Below, one piece after another: positions 1 through 36,119 of a DNA stretch of 64,000 nucleotides (position 1 is the stretch's first letter; every line of letters begins with the position of its first letter). The notes beneath the pieces were generated by a model. That model made no database searches. It had not been told where the DNA came from and saw only the letters and a list, made by a program, of their open reading frames with translations. Source of the DNA: an uncultured candidatus Porisulfidus sp. Its GTDB lineage: Bacteria > Pseudomonadota > Gammaproteobacteria > Poriferisulfidales > Poriferisulfidaceae. Where the stretch lies: positions 1,216,001 through 1,280,000 of the forward strand of contig OZ220480.1 in the NCBI GenBank assembly GCA_965116025.1, written 5' to 3'. Made by a program: the position numbers and the translations under genes.

Positions 1-967
1 TCTCGTGAATCGTTTTTCCCGCTTTTTCGCGGTGGTCTGCATACTTCCGGAAAGCCTTGAACTCGTCTCGCGCTTTCGTTTCCTTGCTGTTGCGTAGAGT
101 TAGCCAGTAGTTCAAATATACGTCGATTCGTGGCCTCCGTTGAACGCCTCTCCCCACTTCTTCACTCCACCAGGAATCATTATCGAACGGCCACAGTTGC
201 GTTATCGAGGCATCGTTCTCATCCTCCTCCCGAAAACCCGCGTCGTTCAAAATCTTGTTTTTCACCATGTCGGATTCAAGAAGTGGCGTGCCGCGCGCGT
301 TGAGCGCTTCGAATATGGCATGCTGATCGTCAGTGGCATCAAGATCGATCACGACGAGCTCAAGATTCATGCGCACCGCATTTTCCAGAGCCGATGCGGC
401 TTTGGCACGAAATTCGTCATCTCCAGAATATTTATCTAGCCACAATTCCACCTGCTTTTTGAAGAATTCGTGGGCTTGCACGATGCGGGCCTTCGCATGC
501 GTAGCTGAAGGAAGGTCGTTTCTCATCGCATGTTGAAACGCCTCTCTGTCCGCGATTGTCGGCCATACCTTGAAAGCGATTTCCGGTTTTCCATCGCGAA
601 ACTCATCTCGGTTCATGACGAGCGCCGTGAGGCGCCTAGCGGGGTCGGTATGCTCTCGCTTCTCAAGAACTTCTTGAATCGCGTCGATCAGCAGTTGCAG
701 AGTGATCAATCTCTGCTGTCCATCCACTACGATACGGCGCTCTATGGTACCTGCGGGATATGGTTTTTGTTGCAGGACGACTGCGCCCATGAAGTGGGGC
801 TTTTCTTGGTCACCACCCAGAATATTCTGCGCGAGGTTTTCCACATCGTCCCATAGCGGTTCCCATTGTTGTTCTTGCTCCCACACATAACGCCGCTGGA
901 AAGCGGGGATTTCGTACTGAACCGGTTGCGCGAACAAATGCTGAGGCAACCGAAGGTTGGTTTGCAT
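1..967 (-). CDS. DUF262 (GmrSD-type restriction/defence) domain protein, 3' end runs off the window
   Basis: Manual minus-strand translation from ATG 967: MQTNLRLPQHLFAQPVQYEIPAFQRRYVWEQ..HFMGAVVL..VVDGQQRLITL..IFEALNARGTPLLESDMVKN. These are the QRxYxW, DGQQR and FExLNxRG motifs of DUF262. Not in the ORF track because no stop lies in the window; lower GC than neighbours. Confidence 0.88.
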   Translation of the reverse strand, partial: MQTNLRLPQHLFAQPVQYEIPAFQRRYVWEQEQQWEPLWDDVENLAQNILGGDQEKPHFMGAVVLQQKPYPAGTIERRIVVDGQQRLITLQLLIDAIQEVLEKREHTDPARRLTALVMNRDEFRDGKPEIAFKVWPTIADREAFQHAMRNDLPSATHAKARIVQAHEFFKKQVELWLDKYSGDDEFRAKAASALENAVRMNLELVVIDLDATDDQHAIFEALNARGTPLLESDMVKNKILNDAGFREEDENDASITQLWPFDNDSWWSEEVGRGVQRRPRIDVYLNYWLTLRNSKETKARDEFKAFRKYADHREKAGKTIHE

Positions 968-20514: not shown

Positions 20515-23500
20515 TCAGAAGCGAACCTTCAGCAGGACGCTCGCGCCGTAATCATGATTGTCGCCGTCCGACGCCGCGTAGTGAGCGTCCCCCGAGAGCG
20601 TCGACTCTCCCTTCTCATCCAAGACCATCACGCCCCCAACGCCCAATCGCGCCCAAGTCGACTCCACCTCCGAGCGAAGCCGCGACCCCGACGCCATGAC
20701 CTTCCGGCTCTCCGAGAACTCGCGCTCCACGTCCAATGAGGCGTACGTCTGGCCATTCTCCAGCAGCGCCCCAACCCGCGCCCGCACGCTGTCCTCCGAG
20801 CGGAACGACACCCGACCGCTCCCAGTGACACCCGACACGTCGTCAAAGCCGTCGATGTCCACCCAAGTCCACGTCAGTCCCCCGCGCGGAACCAGCGCGA
20901 AGCCGTCCCTCTCCATCCGCCTGCCGACCTCCACGCCGATCGCGTGACCCTCTCCATCCAACCCGGACGCCACCATCCCCCGAGTCTCCGAGCTCAGGTC
21001 GACATCCTCGAACCGCGTGTACGAGAGCTCCCCGTCCGCGTACCAGCCGTCCTCGCCCCGCCAAGTCGCCGAGGCGCCCACGCCCACGCCCGAGACCTCG
21101 ATCTTCCCGCCGCGCGCGACGTCCGCCTCGCCGTCCCGGTAATGCGCGCTCACGCCCAGCGTCACGCCCGGCAGATCCGTGGGAACGGCGAAGCCCGTCT
21201 CCACGCCCCAGCGCTCGAAGTCCCAGGATAGCGCGCGACCCGCATCGTCCATCTCGGTCGTGGATATATCCGCTTCCCGCTCGCCGTCGCTCGCCAAAAC
21301 CCGCGCCCACGCGCCCCCGCCATCTCGCGTCGCCGACAGCCGCGCCTGACGACCGTCGGAGCCGCTCATCTCCAGCAGCACCGACGGCAGCGCCTCGTAC
21401 ACCCGAGCCCGGGCGTGGTACGTCCGGCTGATTTCCCTCTCCACGCCCGCCTTGAACTGGTGCCCTCCCGTGATCGACCTCAGCGTGACCATCCGCTCGA
21501 ACACCGCGTCATACACCCCATGCGTCCCCGTCTTACCGGACGTCGCCTTCACCGCGTCCCCCACAGCGATCGCCTTCGTCATGCCCGCCGTCGACTCGCG
21601 CTGGAAGACGTTCGGCGTTTTATCGCCACTATTCAGGAATTTCCCCGTGATGAACGCGACCTGCCCATGCGCGTTCTCCTTCAGGGTGACATGCAGCGCC
21701 TTGTCCGCCCTCACCGCGGTCCCCGACGTCGCGCCGATCTCCGCCTTCGGCCCGATCACCAGCGTCCCGCCGTTCACCATCCGAACGCCGGCGTGCTCGC
21801 CGGCGCCGCCCATCACCTTGCCGTTGATGGTGACCGTCTGGTCGTAGTGACCCTTCCGGGCGTGGTCGGACGCGAACGTCCGCATGCCTTTGACATGCAC
21901 TCCGTCCTTCTTGGCTCGGATCGTCGCCATCTCCCCCACCGTGACGCTGATCTTCCCGGCTTTCGGCGCGTCCTCGTCCTCGTAGGCGGTGGCGGTCTCC
22001 GCGTAGACCCCATACCCATCCGCCGTGATCGCTCCGCCTGAAACATCGATCATGATCGGGATGATCGTCTCAATGTCCGGTATCTCCTCCGCGTCGTTCA
22101 AGTCTCTCACATAGGCGAGAATCCCGTCGCCCTTCGACGTGATGTCCGCCTTCGACTCGATCTCGATCTTCCCGATCTTGGCCTCGTAGGTGGAGGGGGC
22201 TTGAGAGTCGGCCGCCGTCTCGTCGGAAGCCGCCTGGGGCTCCGAGCCCCCATGAATGGCGAGAATGCCGGCGGTCCGGGGCTTCAGGTCCGCCAGCTCC
22301 GTCTTGTGATCCTCCGTGAGCGAGAAGAAGGCGTTAGGCTGGTCGCCCGCGACGATCTCTCCCGCCAGATGCTTCGCGACCACGTCGCCCTGACTGATAT
22401 GCAAAGCGAGGATCCCCGAGCCTTTCGCGTGGATGAAACCCTCGTTGGTGACCATGAGATCAATCTCGTTAGTCGCGTCTTCGGTCTCGACGAACACGCC
22501 GTTCTCGCCGACCGGCGTCTCCGCGGTCCCGATCCGCGCGCCGGACTCGATGTCCACTCGGGTCGTTCCCTCATCGACTTGGTTGCGAACGTACACGCCA
22601 TGGCCGCCAGCCTGAGCGATCACGCCCGCCAGGTCGATTTCGATATCGCCGCCCGCATGATTGGAATAAACATGGATCCCGTGAAGATCCTCCGCCTCCG
22701 TCTTGATCGTTCCCCCGGTCACCTTGACCGTGACCGGAACCACCGAATCGTCGTCCCCTCTCGTGTCGATATAAATGCCATTACTGCGGACGTCAATGTC
22801 GCCGCTCGAGACGATGGCGATCTCGCTGCTCGGAGACGCGGCGGTGCCCATGGTCGAATCCTGATGGAACACGTAAATGCCATGAAAATTGTAGTAATCG
22901 ATATCGCCGTCATACAGCGTGGCCTCTCCGCTCGGGGTGAGCGTTCGCGCGTACAAAGGCCGCTGCCTCAGGCTCCGGATCGTCCCGTGGTTCGTGACGC
23001 GGATGTCCCCTCCCTCTCCACTATTGGACTGATCGACTAAAATCCCCTTACTGGTCACGCTGCCCTTCGCCGTCTCGACGGCGACGTCTCCAGACCCCGC
23101 GTGGTACACGTAGATTCCTCGGTAATACCCGTAGATCTCGCCCCGGTTCACGATCAACATGTCGCCCTCGGCGGACGCGTCTCTGTAATACGCCCACACC
23201 CCATAACGCCCCACCGGAATCTCCTCGGTGCCGATCCGCGCATCAGCCTCGATCGCGATCTCGATCTTGTCCGTTCTCGAGTCCGAGCCGGCTCCGTCGT
23301 TCTCGACGACGATCCCGTAGTTTCTGCTGCCCCGCCGATACTGGGGAGCGATGAAGGTCGCGCTATACTGTTGGCCACCAGAAGAGTACGTGCCCGCCGT
23401 CGTCGTCCACCCCGCCTCGTTCACGATCCTCGCCTTGCCTTCTAGATTGACCGTCAGCTCCCCGCGACCGACCACGGCGATCCCGGAATTTCGGCCTCGG

Positions 23501-23881
23501 GTAAGATCGCTGGGAGAGGTGCCGGGATTCTTGGGAGGAAGGAACGACTTGATGGTCGTCATCTCCCCGGAAGGCCTCACGGTCAGCGCCAGACCGCCCG
23601 TCTGACCCGTGTACTCGATGGGATTGGCATCGGCGTTATTAGTCCCGCCGTAGGTCGCGGCATCGCAGGTGACTGTTTTGGCGGCGCTGACGGCGCCGCA
23701 CTCGTCCGCCTCGGCGGAATGCGGAATCAGCGGAATGGAGAGAACGGCCGTCAAACCGGCCAGAACGGTCAGGAAACGAGGGCTATGCCCCCCCCCCCCC
23801 CCCCCCCCCTATGAGGGAAGACGACGAGGCGCCGCGAAACGCGGCGCGAATGGCATTGGAAGCGGAAAGGATCTTCTTCAT
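20515..23881 (-). CDS. Autotransporter 1 (type Va), frameshifted at a G22 tract (phase OFF as assembled)
   Basis: ATG 23881 gives MKKILSASNAIRAAFRGASSSSLIGGGGGGGA*; removing one G joins it to HSPRFLTVLAGLTAVLSIPLIPHSAEA-DEC (signal peptide) and ORF 20515..23754; Gly/Ile/Val-rich passenger; barrel ending DYGASVLLKVRF. Confidence 0.87.
23788..23809 (-). repeat. Poly-G homopolymer (G22 on the coding strand)
   Basis: 22 consecutive C on the + strand. Confidence 0.95.
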
Positions 23882-23920: not shown

Positions 23921-24252
23921 CAGCACGATCTTGCCGGCGCGCGTCATGCCGCAGGCGTGGACGCTCGCTTGCCCGGGTCCACGCCCAGATGGGCGATGGC
24001 GAGTTGACGTGGAGTCCTTTTCATAAGGGTCGTCCCGCTTTCGCGATGGGTTCGTCGTGCGCTCATCGTGCCCGCTCAAGGCCGAACAGGGAAGCGGGGC
24101 GAACCATCCCATCAACGATATCGTGGAGCGCGCTCCTTTCTTCCCGATCTCCGTAAATCGCGCATCTGTGAAACATCCACTGAAGAGGTATGGCGAATGG
24201 GGTAGAATGGATTTCCAACCCCGATAATAATCACAACTAAGGGGGTGATCCA

Positions 24253-26163
24253 ATGGAGGGAATCCTCGAGATCAGGGACGGGTGCAACACTCCGGAGCAG
24301 TTGCTTCGCAGCCTCGCCTTCGCTCGTTACCTGAAAATCTACAAGGAGGAGTTTTTGGCGGACCTTCTGCGTCGCGACCATAATCTCGATGAGGCCCAGC
24401 ACAAGGCGGAGCTGATTCGCGGCATCACGTTGCGGGACATCACCGAGGTTCTGGACTCCAGTCATTTCTCGCCCGAGGCCCTGGAGCGCGCCCGCGCGGT
24501 CGTCAAGTTTCTGGACGGCGGCTTCCACCACTTCCGCAACGCGAGCTACTCGCGCTTGGTGCGGCTGCAGAACGAGGTGGTCAGCTCGGGCACGGAAAGC
24601 CAGAGCACGATCAAGGACAAGGTCACGGAGAAGGCCGCCCAGTTGAACGACCTGATTCTGGATACGCGTCGCCGGTTGCTGTCTCAGGTGGGGCTGGGCT
24701 ATGGCGTGCGCCGCACGCCGGGCATGGACGCCTCCCCGAACGTGACGGCCGGCGAGATTTCTGGCCACTACTGCAACATCCCCGCCACGTACAGCGTCCT
24801 GTGCCATGTTCCCCTGACCATGGCGGCGGATATCCGCACGGGCGTGGACTACCGCACGCCGGCCAACCGGCGCGCCTATCCGTTTTTCGAGCTGGACCAT
24901 AACCCGTTGCATCTGGAGCGTTTCGACCCGGATGCCTGGGTATCGGTCCCGTTGCGGGTCGGGCGCTGGCTGATCGTCGCGTACATTCACAAGTCGCGCG
25001 GCTGCATCGAGATGGAGCCGGGATTGCTGAACCTGTTTCCTTTCGCTGGCGTCGAGCGTGATTTTCCGGCGATGCGCCCCGACGGGCTGTTCTTCTTCGG
25101 GGATCCGAACGGGACGTTCGGTGAGGATCTTGGCTACTACTGGGACGAGGACGACCAGTTGCTGATCGGCCTGGTCCCGCAACACGACGAATACAAGTAT
25201 TTCGGCTATTGCAAAAAACCGATTCTGACCCTGCACAACGTGCTCGCGATTCGCGCTGGCGACGTTCCGTTGCACTGCGGATGCACCCGCTACATCGTGG
25301 GCTTCGAGGGCGACGATCCGTACGTTTCGGAAATGCTGATCAAGGCGGACGACATGGGGCGGGTCGTGCTGGAGCGCGCCAATGGCGCGGCGTTTCGCCG
25401 GCCGATCTTCTACGGCACCGAGATCGGGGCGTTCGCGTGTCTGGACGGTTTCAGCGAGCAGGCGAAGCTGGCCATGGAAGGCCGGGAAGTTGGCTACAAC
25501 AACCATATGGGCTCGAACGCGCGGCAGGTCGTGCCGGTGGCCGAGGAGTCCGAGGTGGCGCTGGGCAGCGACCTAGACGTGTTGCTGTATATGAACAACT
25601 TCGACATCAAGGAAGAGGGCGAATCCTGCATCGATGTCGATATTCCGGTGTCCGAGGCGATCCGGCATTTTCGGAAAGGCGAGCGGGTCGCCGCGGGCAG
25701 CACCCAGACGCACCGTGGCAAGAAGGAGGCCAGCTACTGGGCCAACCCGTTCCCGACGCTGATGAGCAACGAGGGCGACGTGCTGCACCCCGATCTATAC
25801 GAACGTTTCAGCGAGACCGAGGCGTCATTCATGAAGGATGTCGAGGAGCTGGTGGAGCGCGGAGAGATGTATCTGGGTGTGGCCTACAGCCAGTTGATGG
25901 CCGGAGTCTACGAGAAGGTCGAGGACGAGGATGTCGCGCGATGTGGCTTCCGCGACCGCGAGGAGATTGAGCAGGTCGCGCCGGAGCGCCTCGCGCGCGA
26001 GCTGATCCAGATGGTCAAGCGGATCGCGGCGCGGAAGCGCGACCGTTTGGGTGGCGAGGCCAAGGAAATCGACGTGACGGTGGCTTTGGTCGGCGACAGC
26101 CGCACCGGCAAGTCGGAGACCGCGGAGAAGCTGGAAGGCGTTCTTGGGCTGACGCTGATCTGA
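24253..26163 (+). CDS. PEP-carboxykinase-like/HPr-kinase-fold P-loop protein with C-terminal Walker A
   Basis: RBS AAGGGGGTGA; YFGYCKKPILTLHN..PLH, ADDMG, YGTEIGAF, NAR, LYMNNF, SYWANPF; GDSRTGKS near the C-terminus. Confidence 0.72.
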   Translation: MEGILEIRDGCNTPEQLLRSLAFARYLKIYKEEFLADLLRRDHNLDEAQHKAELIRGITLRDITEVLDSSHFSPEALERARAVVKFLDGGFHHFRNASYSRLVRLQNEVVSSGTESQSTIKDKVTEKAAQLNDLILDTRRRLLSQVGLGYGVRRTPGMDASPNVTAGEISGHYCNIPATYSVLCHVPLTMAADIRTGVDYRTPANRRAYPFFELDHNPLHLERFDPDAWVSVPLRVGRWLIVAYIHKSRGCIEMEPGLLNLFPFAGVERDFPAMRPDGLFFFGDPNGTFGEDLGYYWDEDDQLLIGLVPQHDEYKYFGYCKKPILTLHNVLAIRAGDVPLHCGCTRYIVGFEGDDPYVSEMLIKADDMGRVVLERANGAAFRRPIFYGTEIGAFACLDGFSEQAKLAMEGREVGYNNHMGSNARQVVPVAEESEVALGSDLDVLLYMNNFDIKEEGESCIDVDIPVSEAIRHFRKGERVAAGSTQTHRGKKEASYWANPFPTLMSNEGDVLHPDLYERFSETEASFMKDVEELVERGEMYLGVAYSQLMAGVYEKVEDEDVARCGFRDREEIEQVAPERLARELIQMVKRIAARKRDRLGGEAKEIDVTVALVGDSRTGKSETAEKLEGVLGLTLI

Positions 26164-26230
26164 TTGGCCTTCCCGAAATACTCGCGCGGTCCGGCGAGAG
26201 AGGCTCTAGAGCCCGCGAAAGCCGGGGGCG

Positions 26231-28987
26231 CTACATCCGCTCGATGCGCTCGCGCTGTTCCAGAAGCTGCGTTCGCGCGGTTTCCAGCTCCTCCAGCCGG
26301 TCTCGCTCTTTTCGCACGATCTCCTCTGGGGCTCGCGCGAGGAATCGCTCGTTGTCCAGTTTGCCGCGGGCCGCTCCGAGGGATCGCTCCAACTTTTTCA
26401 GTTCCCGACCAAGCCGGGCCAGCTCGGCCTCGCGGTCGATGAGGCCAGCCAGCGGGATCAGTAGTCGCATGCTTCCGACCAGCGCCGTGGCGGCTTCCGG
26501 CGCCGTCTCGCCGGGCTCCATCCAGCAAATCGACTCCGGGCGCGCGAGACTCTGGACCCAGTCCCGGGTCGCTTCAAGGCGCGCTTGGTCCCGTGCCGTC
26601 CAGTTCTCCAGAAGCACGGGCACCGGCCGTCCCGGGGCGATATCCATCTCCGCGCGGATCCGGCGAATTCCGCCGATGATCTCCCTCAGCCAGCGCATCG
26701 TCTCGAACGTCTCGGGGTCCTCATCGGCGCCGCGCGCGTCGGGCCAGCGGCGAGTCAGAAGCATATCGTCCCCGTCGTTTTCGCGGCGCGGGAGCTGGCG
26801 GTGCAACTCTTCGGTGATGAACGGCATGAACGGGTGCAGCAGGCGCAGGATCCGGTCGAACGTCGCGAGCAGAACGCGCAGGGTGGACTGCGCGGCGCCG
26901 TCCGGCGAGTCCTCGTTGAGAGTCGCCTTCGCGAGTTCCAGATACCAGTCGCAGAAGTCGCGCCACACGAAATCGTACAGCGTTTTCGCGGCCAAGTCGA
27001 AGCGATAGGATTCGAGGCGCTCGGTGACTTCCCGGGCGACTTGCCGGGAGCGGGCGGCGATCCAGCGGTCGACCAGGCTCGGCTCGGCCATGGGCGCGGA
27101 TTCGTCCAGCCGGTCGGCGCGCGTCCGCGCGAAACGCGCCGCGTTCCAGATTTTGTTGCAGAAATTCCGATAGCCCAGCACGCGTGGCAACTCGAAGCGC
27201 ACGTCGCGGCCAAGCGTCGCCTGGGTAGCGAAGCAAAAGCGCAGCGCGTCGGTCCCGCACGTCGGAAATCCTTCCGGAAACTCCTGGCTGGTCGCCCGCT
27301 CGATCGGGCGCGCTCGCCTAGGGTCCATCAGGTCGGCGACGCGCTTGCGGACCAGCTCTTCCGGCCCGATCCCGTCGATGACGTCAATCGGGTCGATGGT
27401 GTTGCCTTTCGACTTCGACATCTTCTGTCCGCGCGCGTCGCGCACCAGGCCGTGCACGTAAACGGCTCGGAACGGGACCTCGTCCAAGAAGTGCAGGCCC
27501 ATCATGATCATGCGGGCCACCCAGAAGAAGATGATGTCGAATCCCGTGACCAGCGCGTCGGTCGGATAGAAACGCTCCAAAGCCGGATCCTTTCCAGGCC
27601 AGCCGAGCGTCGAGAACGGCCACAAAGCCGAGGAGAACCAGGTGTCCAGCACGTCCTCGTCCTGGCGCAACGGCGCGTCGGGCGGGAGCCCGTGCTTTTC
27701 CCGAACTTCTCGCTCGCTTCGCCCCACGAGCGGCGCGTCATCGGCTCCGTACCAGGCGGGAATTCGGTGTCCCCACCACAACTGACGACTGACGCACCAG
27801 TCCTCGATGCGGTCCATCCACTCATAGTAGGTCTTGCTCCAGTTCTCGGGAACGAAGCGGACGCGGCCATCGCGGACCGCGGCCACGGCCCGGTCAGCCA
27901 GCGGGCGGACGCGGACGAACCACTGATCGGTCAGATAGGGCTCGACCACGGCGCCGCTTCGATCCCCGCGCGGAATGGTCAGGGCGTGCTCTTCCACGCC
28001 CGCTAGCAACCCTCGCGCATCGAGATCCTCCAGGACTCTCTCTCTCGCGCGCTCGCGGCTAAGTCCTCGGTACGCCTCGGGCGCCTCCTCTCCGATCCGC
28101 GCGTCGTCAGTGAGAATGTTGATCCTCGGAAGGTCGTGCCGCAGTCCGACTTGGTAGTCGTTGAAATCGTGCGCCGGCGTGATCTTCACGCACCCGGTGC
28201 CGAACTCCGGATCCACGCGCTCGTCCGCCACGACCGGGATCTCCCGCTCCGCCAGCGGCAGGAGCGCGGAACGCCCGATCCACTTTCGATAGCGGGGATC
28301 GCCGGGATGGACCGCCACCGCGGTGTCGCCCAGCATGGTTTCCGGGCGGGTGGTGGCGACCTCCAGCATCTCTTCGGAGCCGATGATCGGGTAACGCAGG
28401 CGCCACAGTCGTCCTCGCTCCTCCGAGGCGACCACCTCAAGGTCCGACAGGGCGGTGCGCAACGCCGGGTCCCAGTTGACCAGTCGCTCGCCACGGTAGA
28501 CCAGTCCTCGCTCGTGCAGTCGCACGAACGCCTCGCGCACCGCCTCGGACATGCCCCGGTCCATGGTGAATCGTTCGCGCGACCAGTCGACCGAGGCTCC
28601 CATTCGGCGGAGCTGCCGGGTGATGTTTCCTCCAGATTCGCGCTTCCAGGCCCAGACCTCCTCGACGAAGGCGTCCCGACCGAGGTCCCGACGCGTCCGC
28701 CCCTCGCGCTCCAGCTTGCGCTCGACCACCATCTGGGTGGCGATGCCGGCGTGGTCGGTCCCAGGTTGCCACAGGACGGCCTGACCCCGCATCCTCCGCC
28801 AGCGAGTCAGGATGTCCATCAGGGTGTCCTGGAACGCGTGCCCCATGTGCAGGGTTCCGGTCACGTTCGGGGGCGGGATCATGATGCAGAAGGGCTCGCC
28901 TTCCGCTCCCGGCGCGAAGGAGCCGCTCTCTTCCCAGCGTCGCCGCCAGAAAGCCTCGATTCGTTCGGGGTCGTAGCTTTTGTCCAT
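26231..28987 (-). CDS. valS: Valine--tRNA ligase
   Basis: [28 protein letters not shown]-terminal coiled coil. Confidence 0.98.
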
Positions 28988-33705: not shown

Positions 33706-33912
33706 ATGCGCATGAGCACGGAAATGGAGAGGAGAGAAGCGGGCGCCTCGAGCTCGCTTGATCAGATGAGGATGTTTTCCGATGATCAGGCCGCGGCGAG
33801 TTTCCTCAAGGATCCGTGCGGGGTGCCGAGCGAGGCTCCATCGGTCAGGCCAAGCAGCTTTCGCTCGATCATGGTTGGCAAGTGGAGACCGTGCGAGAGC
33901 CGGCTGCTATGA
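33706..33912 (+). other. Small ORF, possibly a degraded transposase N-terminus, coupled to the methyltransferase
   Basis: MRMSTEMERREAGASSSLDQMRMFSDDQAAASFL; its TGA overlaps the MTase ATG (ATGA). Confidence 0.3.
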
Positions 33913-35132
33913 GCGTCAAGAATCGCACCATCTTCACGGGCGACTGCCTCGAGATCATGCGGGGCATGGCGGACGAGTGCGTCGACTTGATCTATCTGGA
34001 TCCACCGTTCAATAGCAACGCCAACTACGCCGCTCCGATCGGAAGCGAGGCGGCGGGCGCGGAATTCAAGGATACCTGGGGGCTGTCGGATATCGACCTC
34101 GCATGGTGGGGCGAGATTGAGGAAGGCTATCCCGCGCTATACAAGTTGCTCGCCGCCGCGCGCGAGACGCATTCCAAATCCATGATGGCGTACTTGATTT
34201 ACATGGCTGTGCGGGTCATTGAAATGAAACGGTTGCTGAAAGTCACTGGAAGCATCTATCTGCATTGCGACCAAACGGCCGGACATTACCTGAAACTCAT
34301 GTTAGACGCGATTTTCGGGAAGGCCAATTTCAGGAACGAGATCGTCTGGTGGTATCGCAGGTGGCCAGCGAAGCAAAAGAATTTCCAACGAATGCATGAC
34401 ACGATTTTTCGCTACTCGAATACAGGCGAGTGGGTTTGGAATCAGTTGTACGACGATCTCTCCGAATCGAGTCGGAAGATGTGGAAAGGAAAAGCGCGGG
34501 TTGATGTCACCAATGCGGAAGGGCGTAGGCATAGCGTAACCGGCGAGCAAGAATCTAAAGGCGTCCCAATGCGTGACGTTTGGGAGATCGCCGTTGTCCA
34601 TCCTGGTTCCAAGCAGAGCACTGGCTACCCCACGCAAAAACCCCTTGACCTGCTCCGCCGCATCGTCCAGGCGTCAAGCGACGAAGGCGACATGGTGCTG
34701 GATCCATTTTGCGGGTGCGCGACCGCTTGCGTGGCGGCGGAAGTTGAGCACCGTCAGTGGATAGGGATCGATGTCAGCGAAAAGGCTTACGAACTGGTGA
34801 AGGCGCGCTTGAAGCGCGAGGTCAATATTGGCAAGGGCGCGATGTTCGGCAAGGCGATCCACCGCACGGATATCCCGACCGACCGCGCTGGCAAGCGCTC
34901 CAAGGACATCAAGCACATGCTGTACGGACGGCAGGAAGGAGTGTGCGCAGGTTGCTTGCTATGGTTCCCGTTCCGAAACATGACGCTGGATCACAAGATC
35001 CCGCTCGCGAAGGGTGGCGCGGACACGGACGAAAACCTGCAGCTGCTCTGCGGAGCGTGCAATTCGAAGAAGGGTGGCCGCCCGATGGAAGAGCTGATCG
35101 CCGCGTTGACGGCGGAGGGAACGCGGCGGTAA
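33909..35132 (+). CDS. Beta-class N6/N4 DNA methyltransferase fused to a C-terminal HNH nuclease domain
   Basis: IYLDPPFNSN, YPTQKPLDLL, VLDPFCGC; then CAGC..TLDHKIPLAKGGADTDENLQLLCGACNSKKG. Confidence 0.9.
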   Translation: MSVKNRTIFTGDCLEIMRGMADECVDLIYLDPPFNSNANYAAPIGSEAAGAEFKDTWGLSDIDLAWWGEIEEGYPALYKLLAAARETHSKSMMAYLIYMAVRVIEMKRLLKVTGSIYLHCDQTAGHYLKLMLDAIFGKANFRNEIVWWYRRWPAKQKNFQRMHDTIFRYSNTGEWVWNQLYDDLSESSRKMWKGKARVDVTNAEGRRHSVTGEQESKGVPMRDVWEIAVVHPGSKQSTGYPTQKPLDLLRRIVQASSDEGDMVLDPFCGCATACVAAEVEHRQWIGIDVSEKAYELVKARLKREVNIGKGAMFGKAIHRTDIPTDRAGKRSKDIKHMLYGRQEGVCAGCLLWFPFRNMTLDHKIPLAKGGADTDENLQLLCGACNSKKGGRPMEELIAALTAEGTRR

Positions 35133-35222: not shown

Positions 35223-36119
35223 ATGATGTCCGATGCCGACGCGATCGACGCGTTTCTCGACAGCAGTTGGGCGGAGCAGGGGCTTGCCCACGCCACGATG
35301 AAGGCGTATCGCTCTGATCTTTCAGGGTTTTCTAGTTGGTTGCGCGATCAGGGCGGGGACCTGCGCGGCGCGGGCGGCGACGATATCCAGATGTACTTGG
35401 CCGCCCGGCTCCAGAAAGGCGCGCGCGCCACCAGCGTGGCCCGAGTCCTCTCGGCGATCCGGCTGTTCTATCGCTACGCGAAGCGACATGCCTTGCGCGC
35501 CGACGATCCATGCGCTCGGGTCATCGCCCCGAAGCCGTCCCAATATCTTCCGGCCGTGTTGAGCGAGCAGGAAATCGAGACCTTGCTGGCCGCGCCGGAC
35601 GTGGGCGAGCCCAGGGGCTTGCGAGACCGCGCCATGCTCGAGCTGCTCTACGCTTGCGGGCTCCGGGTCAGCGAGCTCGTCTCTCTCAAGCGGGGCCAGA
35701 TCAACATGGAGAGCGGGGTTCTGCGACTGGTGGGGAAGGGCGGAAAGGAAAGGCTGGCGCCATTCGGCGAATGCGCGTCCGACTGGCTGGCCCGCTATCT
35801 CCGGGACTCCCGGCCCCGACTGCTGAAGGGGCGCTCGCGAACGGAAGATTTCTTCGTCACTCGGCAGGGTCGGGCGATGAGCCGCCAGGCGTTCTGGCAG
35901 ACGCTTCGCCGGATGGCCCGAAAGTCTGGAATTGGCAAGCCCTTGACCCCGCACACGTTGCGGCATACGTTCGCGACGCACCTTCTGAACAATGGCGCGG
36001 ACCTGCGGTCCGTGCAGATGCTGCTGGGCCACAGCGACCTGGCCACGACCCAGATCTACACCCATGTCGCGCAGGACAGGCTCAAGCGCATGCATCGCGT
36101 CCATCATCCTCGTGGCTAG
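35223..36119 (+). CDS. xerD: Tyrosine recombinase XerD
   Basis: RDRAMLELLYACGLRVSEL, GKGGKER, HTLRHTFATHLL, LGHSDLATTQIYTHV; xerD-dsbC synteny. Confidence 0.95.
   Translation: MMSDADAIDAFLDSSWAEQGLAHATMKAYRSDLSGFSSWLRDQGGDLRGAGGDDIQMYLAARLQKGARATSVARVLSAIRLFYRYAKRHALRADDPCARVIAPKPSQYLPAVLSEQEIETLLAAPDVGEPRGLRDRAMLELLYACGLRVSELVSLKRGQINMESGVLRLVGKGGKERLAPFGECASDWLARYLRDSRPRLLKGRSRTEDFFVTRQGRAMSRQAFWQTLRRMARKSGIGKPLTPHTLRHTFATHLLNNGADLRSVQMLLGHSDLATTQIYTHVAQDRLKRMHRVHHPRG

Follow-up and report, generated by a model that had tools for sequence, protein, structure and literature searches.

The open reading frame and its motif order

The DNA analyzed here is a stretch of 64,000 nucleotides (nt) from contig OZ220480.1 of an uncultured candidatus Porisulfidus sp. 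(assembly GCA_965116025.1), in the following called the window. Our subject is an open reading frame (ORF) on the forward strand, starting at position 24253, whose product is predicted to have the fold of phosphoenolpyruvate carboxykinase (PEPCK). Its P-loop (Walker A motif) is located at the C-terminus. As judged from the comparison with its relatives, the loop belongs to a strand-P-loop-helix unit that was moved there in a whole clade of bacterial proteins. The features of the ORF and its surroundings are compiled in Table 1. The start codon is shared by the homologues, since an alignment of 15 members showed the common N-terminus MExILEIRDGC.

On the translation, the motif order that had been predicted earlier was borne out. 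PLH is followed by ADDMG, GTEIGAF and NAR, and downstream of the latter by YMNNF and then SYWANPF. H341 and A365 are separated by 23 residues. A scan of the protein of 636 amino acids for [GA]xxxxGK[ST] returned a single site, GDSRTGKS (residues 614-621). The original prediction had placed the only P-loop within the last 30 residues, and exactly there it was found (VTVALVGDSRTGKSETAE, residues 608-625, nt 26074-26127). In proteins of the PEPCK_ATP family (PF01293) the kinase-1a P-loop lies between the His and the DD motifs. This order was not found here, as the sole Walker A motif begins at residue 614 and a gap is present internally.

Relatives with a C-terminal P-loop

A word-indexed search, in which 8000 candidates were scored, yielded 383 relatives at E <= 0.001. 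Among the 120 matches listed, the proteins were 614-678 amino acids long, covered 96-100% of the query and were nameless or annotated as "hypothetical". The few named relatives in this list were Gammaproteobacteria (Thiohalomonas denitrificans, Endothiovibrio diazotrophicus and a Solemya gill symbiont). In the contigs of one genome per species (see below), the closest named records, with 81-91% identity, were mostly titled Candidatus Porisulfidus, the others being unnamed Gammaproteobacteria, Chromatiales and one metagenome-assembled genome titled Nitrospira.

A relative was encoded in 175 stretches (contigs, one genome per species), from which 80 loci were kept for locus counts and neighborhoods. 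In 79 of these loci GDSRTGKSE was present at the C-terminus without an internal loop, and the remaining locus ends at a contig end. Within the class of the window 10 of 151 sampled genomes gave a match, nine of them full-length and one distant (29%). The residues G614, D615, S616, R617, G619, K620, S621 and E622 were invariant in the 15 aligned members as well as in 64 members down to 40% identity. Since the C-terminal loop occurs throughout the close family, it is a property of the clade and not of this genome.

These findings leave hardly any room for an artefact, in which a misassembly, a frameshift or a chimeric contig would have produced both the deletion and the C-terminal motif. Besides the 79 loci, which stem from many assemblies, the same architecture was found in 127 proteins from independent sources, and the frame is open and can be aligned end to end with the homologues. 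Local misassembly had been named as a possible explanation beforehand; none was seen, and the architecture is family-wide in independent assemblies. In addition, a contig of 2815 nt from the public run X1 covers positions 24023-26400 with no difference, indel or joint. Run X2 covers the same positions in two contigs with six substitutions. Because both runs may include the source sample, they are not regarded as independent support. We consider the probability of an artefact to be negligible.

One member of the close family, P0122 (637 amino acids, C-terminal form, 43% identical), was conspicuous by its 35 Trp residues. Of these, 20 are found at positions where at least seven of nine relatives have Gly, including the glycines of the P-loop (VWDSRTWKSE), and only two at conserved Trp positions. 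It looks like a gene in which TGA encodes Gly (code 25, Gracilibacteria/Absconditabacteria) that was called with TGA as Trp. Given this apparent origin, the C-terminal form may also exist outside the Proteobacteria.

Relatives with an internal P-loop

When 1.84 billion representatives were searched exhaustively with phmmer, 238 matches were obtained. Beside the form of 637 amino acids they included many proteins of 520-600 amino acids with about 30% identity, here named the internal form, at E 1e-37 and weaker. These often aligned in two to three stretches that were broken at query residues 343-356. The wording of the internal form is LP(L/I)HGAxxxIxLKxxxxxNVIIIGDSGAGKSETLEAxRxLAxxxIxxxxIIFDDMG. 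The original prediction mentioned a PEPCK-annotated family in which GD[ST]GAGKSE separates H from DDMG. Such a family does exist, as the relatives of about 570 amino acids carry GDSGAGKSE at this place. The objection raised there against a relocation, that all homologues might have the P-loop at the C-terminus, therefore holds for the close family but not for these relatives, where the loop is internal.

Examples of the internal form are P0134, P0353 of Thermosulfuriphilus ammonigenes and P0354 of Thermosulfurimonas dismutans. P0134 has at least 7291 close relatives, many of them named "phosphoenolpyruvate carboxykinase" by NCBI. They occur in Nitrospirae, KSB1, Calditrichia, Firmicutes, Magnetococcales, Thermosulfuriphilus and Thermosulfurimonas. 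The internal-form relatives stayed below the threshold on PEPCK_ATP (14-21 bits vs a cut-off of 26.5) and on Hpr_kinase_C (12.8 bits at most vs 33.3); DUF4914 was sub-threshold as well.

For a classification by motif position, 270 stored proteins were available. After 75 proteins shorter than 500 amino acids had been left out, 195 were kept. A Walker A motif was present only at the C-terminus in 127 and only internally in 60 of them, and none carried both. The remaining eight were missed by the regular expression for DDM. All of these were collinear with the internal form, resulting in 68 proteins with the internal layout in total. Three of the eight have a Walker A motif, while in five the P-loop and the DD motif are degenerate.

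These five full-length proteins of the internal form are P0198, P0238, P0240, P0249 and P0250, and their degenerate Walker A and DD motifs read, for example, DDTGAGRS/FDGIG, GDSSSGKH and GDAESGGI. Possibly they represent pseudoenzymes or superfamily members whose chemistry has changed. The multidomain protein P0269 (2170 amino acids) contains an embedded PEPCK-like module of the internal form at about residues 1411-1665, with GDSGAGKS at 1547.

Evidence for a relocated unit

A cross-family alignment (MAFFT L-INS-i) of 13 proteins of the C-terminal form and 16 of the internal form revealed a gap of 26 columns in the former. It is located between ...YIVGF-EG and DDPYVSEMLIKADDMG, exactly opposite ASANVIIIGDSGAGKSETLEAFRIL of P0134. 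The two forms can be aligned up to the end of the final helix; beyond it, the C-terminal form alone continues for about 40 residues (EIDVTVALVGDSRTGKSETAEKLEGVLGLTLI). A gap of about 30 residues between H and ADDMG had been expected. The gap does exist, but its net size is about 26 residues: some 34 profile positions are excised and about 10 residues stand in their place.

A profile of the internal form (571 positions, built from 60 proteins) matched the protein in three non-collinear pieces. Profile positions 15-341 correspond to residues 6-344 and positions 376-512 to residues 355-503, and positions 351-372 were found on residues 607-628 of the tail. At the internal site, positions 342-375 remained unmatched. 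The tail piece reached an independent E of 1.5e-5, and the tail alone an E of 1.4e-7 (search of 8 sequences). The C-terminal segment thus matches the missing internal segment, as had been proposed, and fills the absent profile positions. The same three-piece pattern was obtained for all seven members of the C-terminal form that were tested.

To see whether a P-loop of any kind would give such a match, we searched all 17,814 stop-to-stop frames of at least 60 amino acids in the protein's own genome (2.02 Mb) with a 32-position profile restricted to the excised unit. The tail ranked first with 22.2 bits (E 2.6e-5), and the runner-up reached 10.3 bits. Because of this genome-wide control, the invariance of its residues and its conservation across genome loci, the C-terminal GDSRTGKS is more than a chance occurrence. 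Taking the sequence comparisons as a basis, the strand-P-loop-helix is relocated in the whole clade and the order of homologous segments is changed relative to the relatives.

Predicted fold and position of the tail

An AlphaFold2 (AF2) model of the protein was built on an alignment of 117 sequences. Its mean predicted local distance difference test (pLDDT) score was 90.6 and its predicted template modelling (pTM) score 0.90. In Foldseek the highest-ranking matches were PEPCKs (best E 2.7e-10, prob 1.00). Against PEPCK of T. thermophilus (1xkv_B) VIA-align gave a Z of 13.9 and a root-mean-square deviation (rmsd) of 3.4 for 333 aligned residues, covering 174..594 of the model. The AF2 model of P0134 (pLDDT 94.3, pTM 0.93) aligned with 2pc9_C at Z 18.9, rmsd 3.4 and 353 residues. 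The approximately 20 extra aligned residues of P0134 would be expected if an aligner that works sequentially has to skip the relocated unit of our protein, which is about 25 residues long. According to these models the protein has the two-domain PEPCK fold. The N-terminal helical region is common to the C-terminal and the internal form and lies outside every PEPCK structural alignment, as these begin at about residue 168-188 (VIA-align ranges).

The strand and the helix of the tail were modelled with pLDDT values of 97, 90 and 88 per block of ten residues. The strands 338-352 and 355-365 form a tight hairpin (pLDDT 95-97). Since DSSP assigns "E" only within a sheet ladder, the tail strand is paired with the body in the model. 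For HPr kinase, Longo et al. 2020 (PMC7758060) describe that beta1 and the Asp-bearing beta2 are separated by an antiparallel strand, which precedes beta1 in the sequence. The same source notes that ECOD groups HPr kinase with the catalytic C-terminal domain of PEPCK. This arrangement suggests the sheet order beta1 / upstream (His) strand / beta2-DD. With the His strand adjacent and antiparallel to the DD strand, removal of beta1, loop and alpha1 leaves ends that a short hairpin can join.

The tail might also work in trans, in such a way that its strand-P-loop-helix inserts into the gap of a neighboring subunit of a domain-swapped oligomer. The geometry permits swapping, as the unit is located at the chain end behind a long helix and a linker of six residues, and HPr kinase, a member of the same topology group, is oligomeric. 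However, PEPCKs are mostly monomers, and the AF2 monomer was confident without a second chain (pTM 0.90, tail pLDDT 88-97). We therefore regard docking in trans as unlikely. A complex prediction of the core (residues 1-598) with ATP, Mg and the tail (residues 599-636) gave 0.93, 0.94 and 0.93, compared to 0.74 for a control with an unrelated partner of 38 amino acids; this result was counted neither way.

Catalytic motifs and predicted chemistry

Profiles were compared with hhalign, using ten genuine PckA genes found in genomes of the class to which the window belongs. The internal form matched PckA with Prob 86.7 and E 4.4e-6 over 208 columns. In this alignment DYFGYmKK was paired with YAGEmKK, LPIHGA with LPMHCa, IIGDSGAGKSET with FFGLSGTGKTTL, IIFDD with LIGDD and NARVVIP with NTRaYP. 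The P-loop GDSGAGKSE of the internal form was paired with GLSGTGKTT of PckA. For the C-terminal form, the body matched over residues 314-518 (184 columns, E 8.7e-4), with a gap opposite the P-loop of PckA. The tail gave a separate, alternative match, in which residues 612-626 fall on the P-loop of PckA (E 0.003, template positions 230-244).

In 117 sequences of both forms the residues R207, Y316, G318, K321, D366, D367, G388, E390, G392, N422 and R424 were invariant. The same was true for M368, F394 and P339, and nearly so for K322 and H341. The equivalents in PckA of E. coli we take to be R65, Y207, K212/K213, H232, D268/D269 and R333, which bind metal and substrate, and, for the P-loop, K254/T255. 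By this motif comparison, the PEPCK catalytic motifs are all kept.

This conservation also bears on the question whether the core is a pseudoenzyme that lost its P-loop, with the C-terminal GDSRTGKSE as an unrelated later addition that does not rebuild a site of the PEPCK type. Loss of catalysis does occur in the superfamily, as the five internal-form relatives with degenerate P-loop and DD motifs illustrate, and the tail alone had no Pfam match better than E 0.21 (AAA_6). Yet the other catalytic residues are still invariant in the C-terminal form, and so are eight tail positions (G614-R617, G619-E622) down to 40% identity. Furthermore, the tail matches exactly those profile positions that are absent from the core, it exceeds every other P-loop in the genome by 12 bits, and AF2 builds it with high confidence as a sheet strand and a helix. 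A pseudoenzyme with an unrelated tail is therefore very improbable.

Judged by its motifs, the enzyme very probably works in a PEPCK-like manner, with a metal assisting the transfer of a phosphoryl group between a nucleotide and a substrate that is an enolate or a carboxylate. The reaction would most likely be an ATP/NTP-dependent phosphoryl transfer to or from a carboxylic acid resembling phosphoenolpyruvate (PEP) or oxaloacetate. For a related small-molecule substrate we see about an even chance. A genuine interconversion of PEP and oxaloacetate appears rather doubtful, and the remainder falls to other or no catalysis.

Origin of the rearrangement

A maximum-likelihood tree was computed by a quick search under LG+G4 from 18 rows of the C-terminal and 60 rows of the internal form, on 554 columns that exclude the P-loop and the tail. 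One branch with a length of about 1 and a Shimodaira-Hasegawa-like approximate likelihood ratio test (SH-aLRT) support of 100 separated all C-terminal-form rows from the internal-form rows. As a single branch splits the two forms, one change of state suffices, and the tree indicates that the relocation happened once. The internal form is taken as ancestral because both PEPCK and HPr kinase have the internal order.

We propose that in the ancestor the unit was located between the His-bearing strand and the DD strand, as in the relatives of about 570 amino acids, in PEPCK and in HPr kinase. In the clade the unit would have been deleted internally and the flanking strands joined by the tight hairpin FEGDDPY, while beta1, Walker A and alpha1 came to be encoded as the last 32 residues behind the C-terminal helix. 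In the folded protein the tail strand would pair with the free edge of the His strand and thereby rebuild the order beta1 / His strand / DD strand. K620 and S621 would then hold the beta- and gamma-phosphates of the nucleotide together with Mg next to D366/D367, H341 and K321/K322. Together with Y316, R207 and R424 these residues would reproduce the PEPCK catalytic set.

The likeliest origin would be a partial tandem duplication of a 3' block consisting of the P-loop unit and the rest. If the first P-loop unit and the second copy of the rest were then lost, [P][rest] would have become [rest][P], so that within a longer chain the C-terminal block would be circularly permuted. Such a route predicts an intermediate with two P-loops. 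The original prediction spoke of a non-circular segment swap. This stands insofar as the unit is relocated and the change is not circular for the protein as a whole, but it can also be described as a circular permutation of the C-terminal block.

Genomic context and metabolism

ORFs of the 80 loci were clustered, and the flanks of 14 diverse loci as well as recurrent clusters were scanned with Pfam. The neighbors varied by genome and included AcrB, GGDEF, GlmS, ValS, aspartokinase and response regulators. Synteny with gltB, dnaG and valS was confined to close Porisulfidus-like relatives.

Table 1. Coordinates of the features in and around the PEPCK-like ORF (positions in the window unless a contig is given; residues refer to the encoded protein, and corresponding elements to the model of the internal-form protein P0134).
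Feature	Position	Strand	Residues	Element in P0134	Basis or remark
Whole ORF, predicted PEPCK-fold protein with C-terminal P-loop	24253..26163	+	636 aa + stop
Shine-Dalgarno-like AGGGGGTGA	24240..24248	+			5 nt before ATG at 24253; read from sequence
N-terminal, mostly helical region	24253..24753	+	1 to ~167		DSSP of AF2 model
PEPCK-like core, N-domain and nucleotide-binding domain without own P-loop unit	24754..26046	+	~168-598		VIA-align vs 1xkv_B
YFGYCKK, pairs with PEPCK YAGEmKK	25198..25218	+	316-322		hhalign vs 10 genuine PckA
PLHCG, pairs with PEPCK LPMHC; His strand begins here	25267..25281	+	339-343		hhalign, DSSP
FEGDDPY, hairpin turn closing the putative excision site	25303..25323	+	351-357		26-column gap, unmatched profile positions, DSSP
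ADDMG, pairs with PEPCK GDDEH, kinase-2 / metal-binding Asp pair	25345..25359	+	365-369		hhalign
GTEIGAF, pairs with PEPCK FEGGCYA	25414..25434	+	388-394		hhalign
NAR, pairs with PEPCK NTR	25516..25524	+	422-424		hhalign
Long C-terminal helix, leads into tail	25957..26046	+	569-598	helix 570-591, last element	DSSP, cross-family alignment
Putative relocated unit: linker, strand 605-613, P-loop G614-S621, helix 620-631	26047..26160	+	599-636		profile matches, hhalign, DSSP
His strand			338-352	strand 351-362	DSSP of models
P-loop strand (tail)			605-613	strand 367-373	DSSP of models
Helix after P-loop (tail)			620-631	helix 380-390	DSSP of models
DD strand			355-365 / 368-375	strand 395-411	DSSP of models
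Autotransporter gene	20515-23754	-	1079-aa ORF		TTG start 23754; upstream neighbor of the 24253 ORF
valS	26231-28987	-			convergent neighbor; dnaG and gltB further upstream of the PEPCK-like gene
PEP carboxylase gene	G000:C1:903094-905832	-			PF00311
PEP carboxylase gene	G000:C1:864097-866661	+			PF00311

The genome of the window consists of one contig of 2.02 Mb and is 99.4% complete. PEPCK_ATP, PEPCK_GTP and PPDK_N were not matched in it, and two full-length PEP carboxylase genes (PF00311) scored 1013 and 750 bits. Among genomes carrying the protein, PEPCK_ATP was found in one of seven tested, compared to 15 of 41 in the class sample, and PEPCK_GTP in none of six. The positive carrier, G022, has a canonical PckA. 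As the carriers are too few and too closely related, we draw no conclusion on a complementary distribution. A role as an oxaloacetate-to-PEP enzyme is compatible with these data, but far from shown. One could go further and picture the tail as a detachable plug that creates the ATP site only on docking, to its own or to a neighboring chain. The protein would then be a natural split-active-site enzyme whose activity is gated or depends on assembly across subunits. In sulfur-oxidising autotrophs without PckA, PEPCK-GTP and PPDK it would be the unrecognised enzyme for the step from oxaloacetate to PEP. We consider this reading quite improbable.

Several further observations were made in the window. 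At 23788-23809, 34-55 nt upstream of the TTG start of the autotransporter gene, there are 22 consecutive C residues (poly-G when read on the minus strand), which could be a tract for phase variation by slipped-strand mispairing. The intergenic region upstream of the PEPCK-like gene contains a dispersed repeat of 95-115 nt (24000-24115), of which the genome of 2.02 Mb carries 10 copies with 85-100% identity. In the public runs, short contigs of much higher depth pile up at this repeat. The upstream intergenic region including the repeat had no match in Rfam. Moreover, an N6/N4 DNA methylase fused to an HNH endonuclease domain (33816-35129, +) lies directly upstream of a phage-integrase/XerC-like recombinase (35223-36116, +). 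The GC content dips to 0.61 around 34-36 kb of the window, and this region may be a small mobile or restriction-modification island.

Assessment of the proposed relocation

A number of points speak against the interpretation given above. The sequence alone gave no significant match in PDB, Pfam or NCBIfam. For the whole protein no Pfam or NCBIfam family was found at E up to 1, and residues 292-396 alone reached 12.2 bits on PEPCK_ATP, below the cut-off of 26.5. Neither the whole protein nor the tail matched HPr kinase/phosphorylase (PF07475). PDB searches with the single protein and then with a profile returned only generic P-loop matches, with PEPCK 1j3b at E 0.036, and a search of the ESM Atlas only nameless clusters and weak leads to PEPCK, DUF4914 and HPrK. 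The two hhalign matches of the C-terminal form to PckA are individually weak (Prob 23 and 10). The position of the tail beside the DD motif in the AF2 model is an inference.

Regarding the evolutionary part, long branches meet at the split of the tree, which is unrooted and was obtained by a quick search under LG+G4 only. The derived status of the C-terminal form follows from outgroup logic, and the intermediate with two P-loops was absent among the 195 full-length sequences. Regarding the function, no operon partner was found across the 80 loci, and the neighbors give no clue to the substrate. Finally, PckA in G022 and the two PEP carboxylases in the genome of the window mean that the protein is not needed as the sole link between PEP and oxaloacetate. 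Weighing these points against the alignment, profile and model data, we consider it likely that the relocation is real and that the tail completes the nucleotide site.

Significance and comparison with known systems

Relocation of this kind is a rare form of protein rewiring, and here it is common to a whole bacterial family. The element strand-P-loop-helix-strand-Asp has been discussed as the ancestral core of nucleotide-binding proteins in the source on HPr kinase cited above (PMC7758060). The present clade would offer a natural, family-conserved case in which this element is taken apart, with the Walker A unit encoded about 250 residues downstream of its Asp partner and all catalytic residues kept. 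Because sequence comparison still recognises both sides of the rearrangement, it provides a clean test case for rewiring the topology of a sheet without loss of function. The same applies to non-sequential structure aligners and to profile-based annotation, since Pfam and NCBIfam miss the protein, as well as to the design of split enzymes and complementation. In addition, the protein represents a widespread, unannotated enzyme of the PEPCK superfamily in sulfur-oxidising Gammaproteobacteria including sponge symbionts, and it may matter for their central carbon metabolism. Full-text literature searches turned up no paper that describes the family, or a P-loop moved to another place in a PEPCK-like fold.

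The closest comparison is the internal-form family, which is homologous over the whole length (full-sequence E 8.2e-71 against the 60-member profile, 21-27% identity). Common to both are the helical region at the N-terminus, the helix at the C-terminus and the catalytic motifs. In the internal form the strand-GDSGAGKSE-helix lies inside the chain, which ends at the C-terminal helix. In contrast, the clade of the C-terminal form carries the unit as a tail and none internally, and has two extra insertions in its C-terminal helical part.

ATP-dependent PckA (PF01293; 1xkv, 2pc9, 1aq2, 6v2m) has in common with this protein the two-domain fold and the motifs YxGxxKK, LPxH, P-loop, DD and NxR. It differs from our protein, which has an extra N-terminal helical region of about 165 amino acids and its P-loop unit at the C-terminus; the identity in structural alignments is 11-14%. 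The C-terminal domain of HPr kinase/phosphorylase (PF07475), which belongs to the ECOD topology group of the PEPCK C-terminal domain, contains the same kind of P-loop sheet. The P-loop of HPr kinase reads GDSxxGKSE and is very similar to the tail. However, no significant sequence match was obtained, and HPr kinase is a small protein-kinase domain in which strand, beta1, P-loop, alpha1 and beta2-DD follow each other without interruption.

Permutations of P-loop proteins are known from GTPases. The order is G4-G5-G1-G2-G3 in the YlqF/YawG/YjeQ family and G3-G4-G5-G1-G2 in cpRAS. According to PMC2430557 they are likewise natural P-loop NTPases in which Walker A (G1) follows motifs that it normally precedes, while the site is kept in three dimensions. 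These GTPases have the TRAFAC fold and are permuted as whole domains, whereas in our PEPCK-like protein only the block from the P-loop to the C-terminus would be permuted. Non-cyclic permutations, in which the same spatial elements are connected in another way, are treated in PMC2096629, PMC2213659 and PMC3863775 (HK97-like fold). As presented there, they are structural comparisons; in the protein studied here both sides are recognisable by sequence profiles, and the piece that appears to have moved is the Walker A unit itself.

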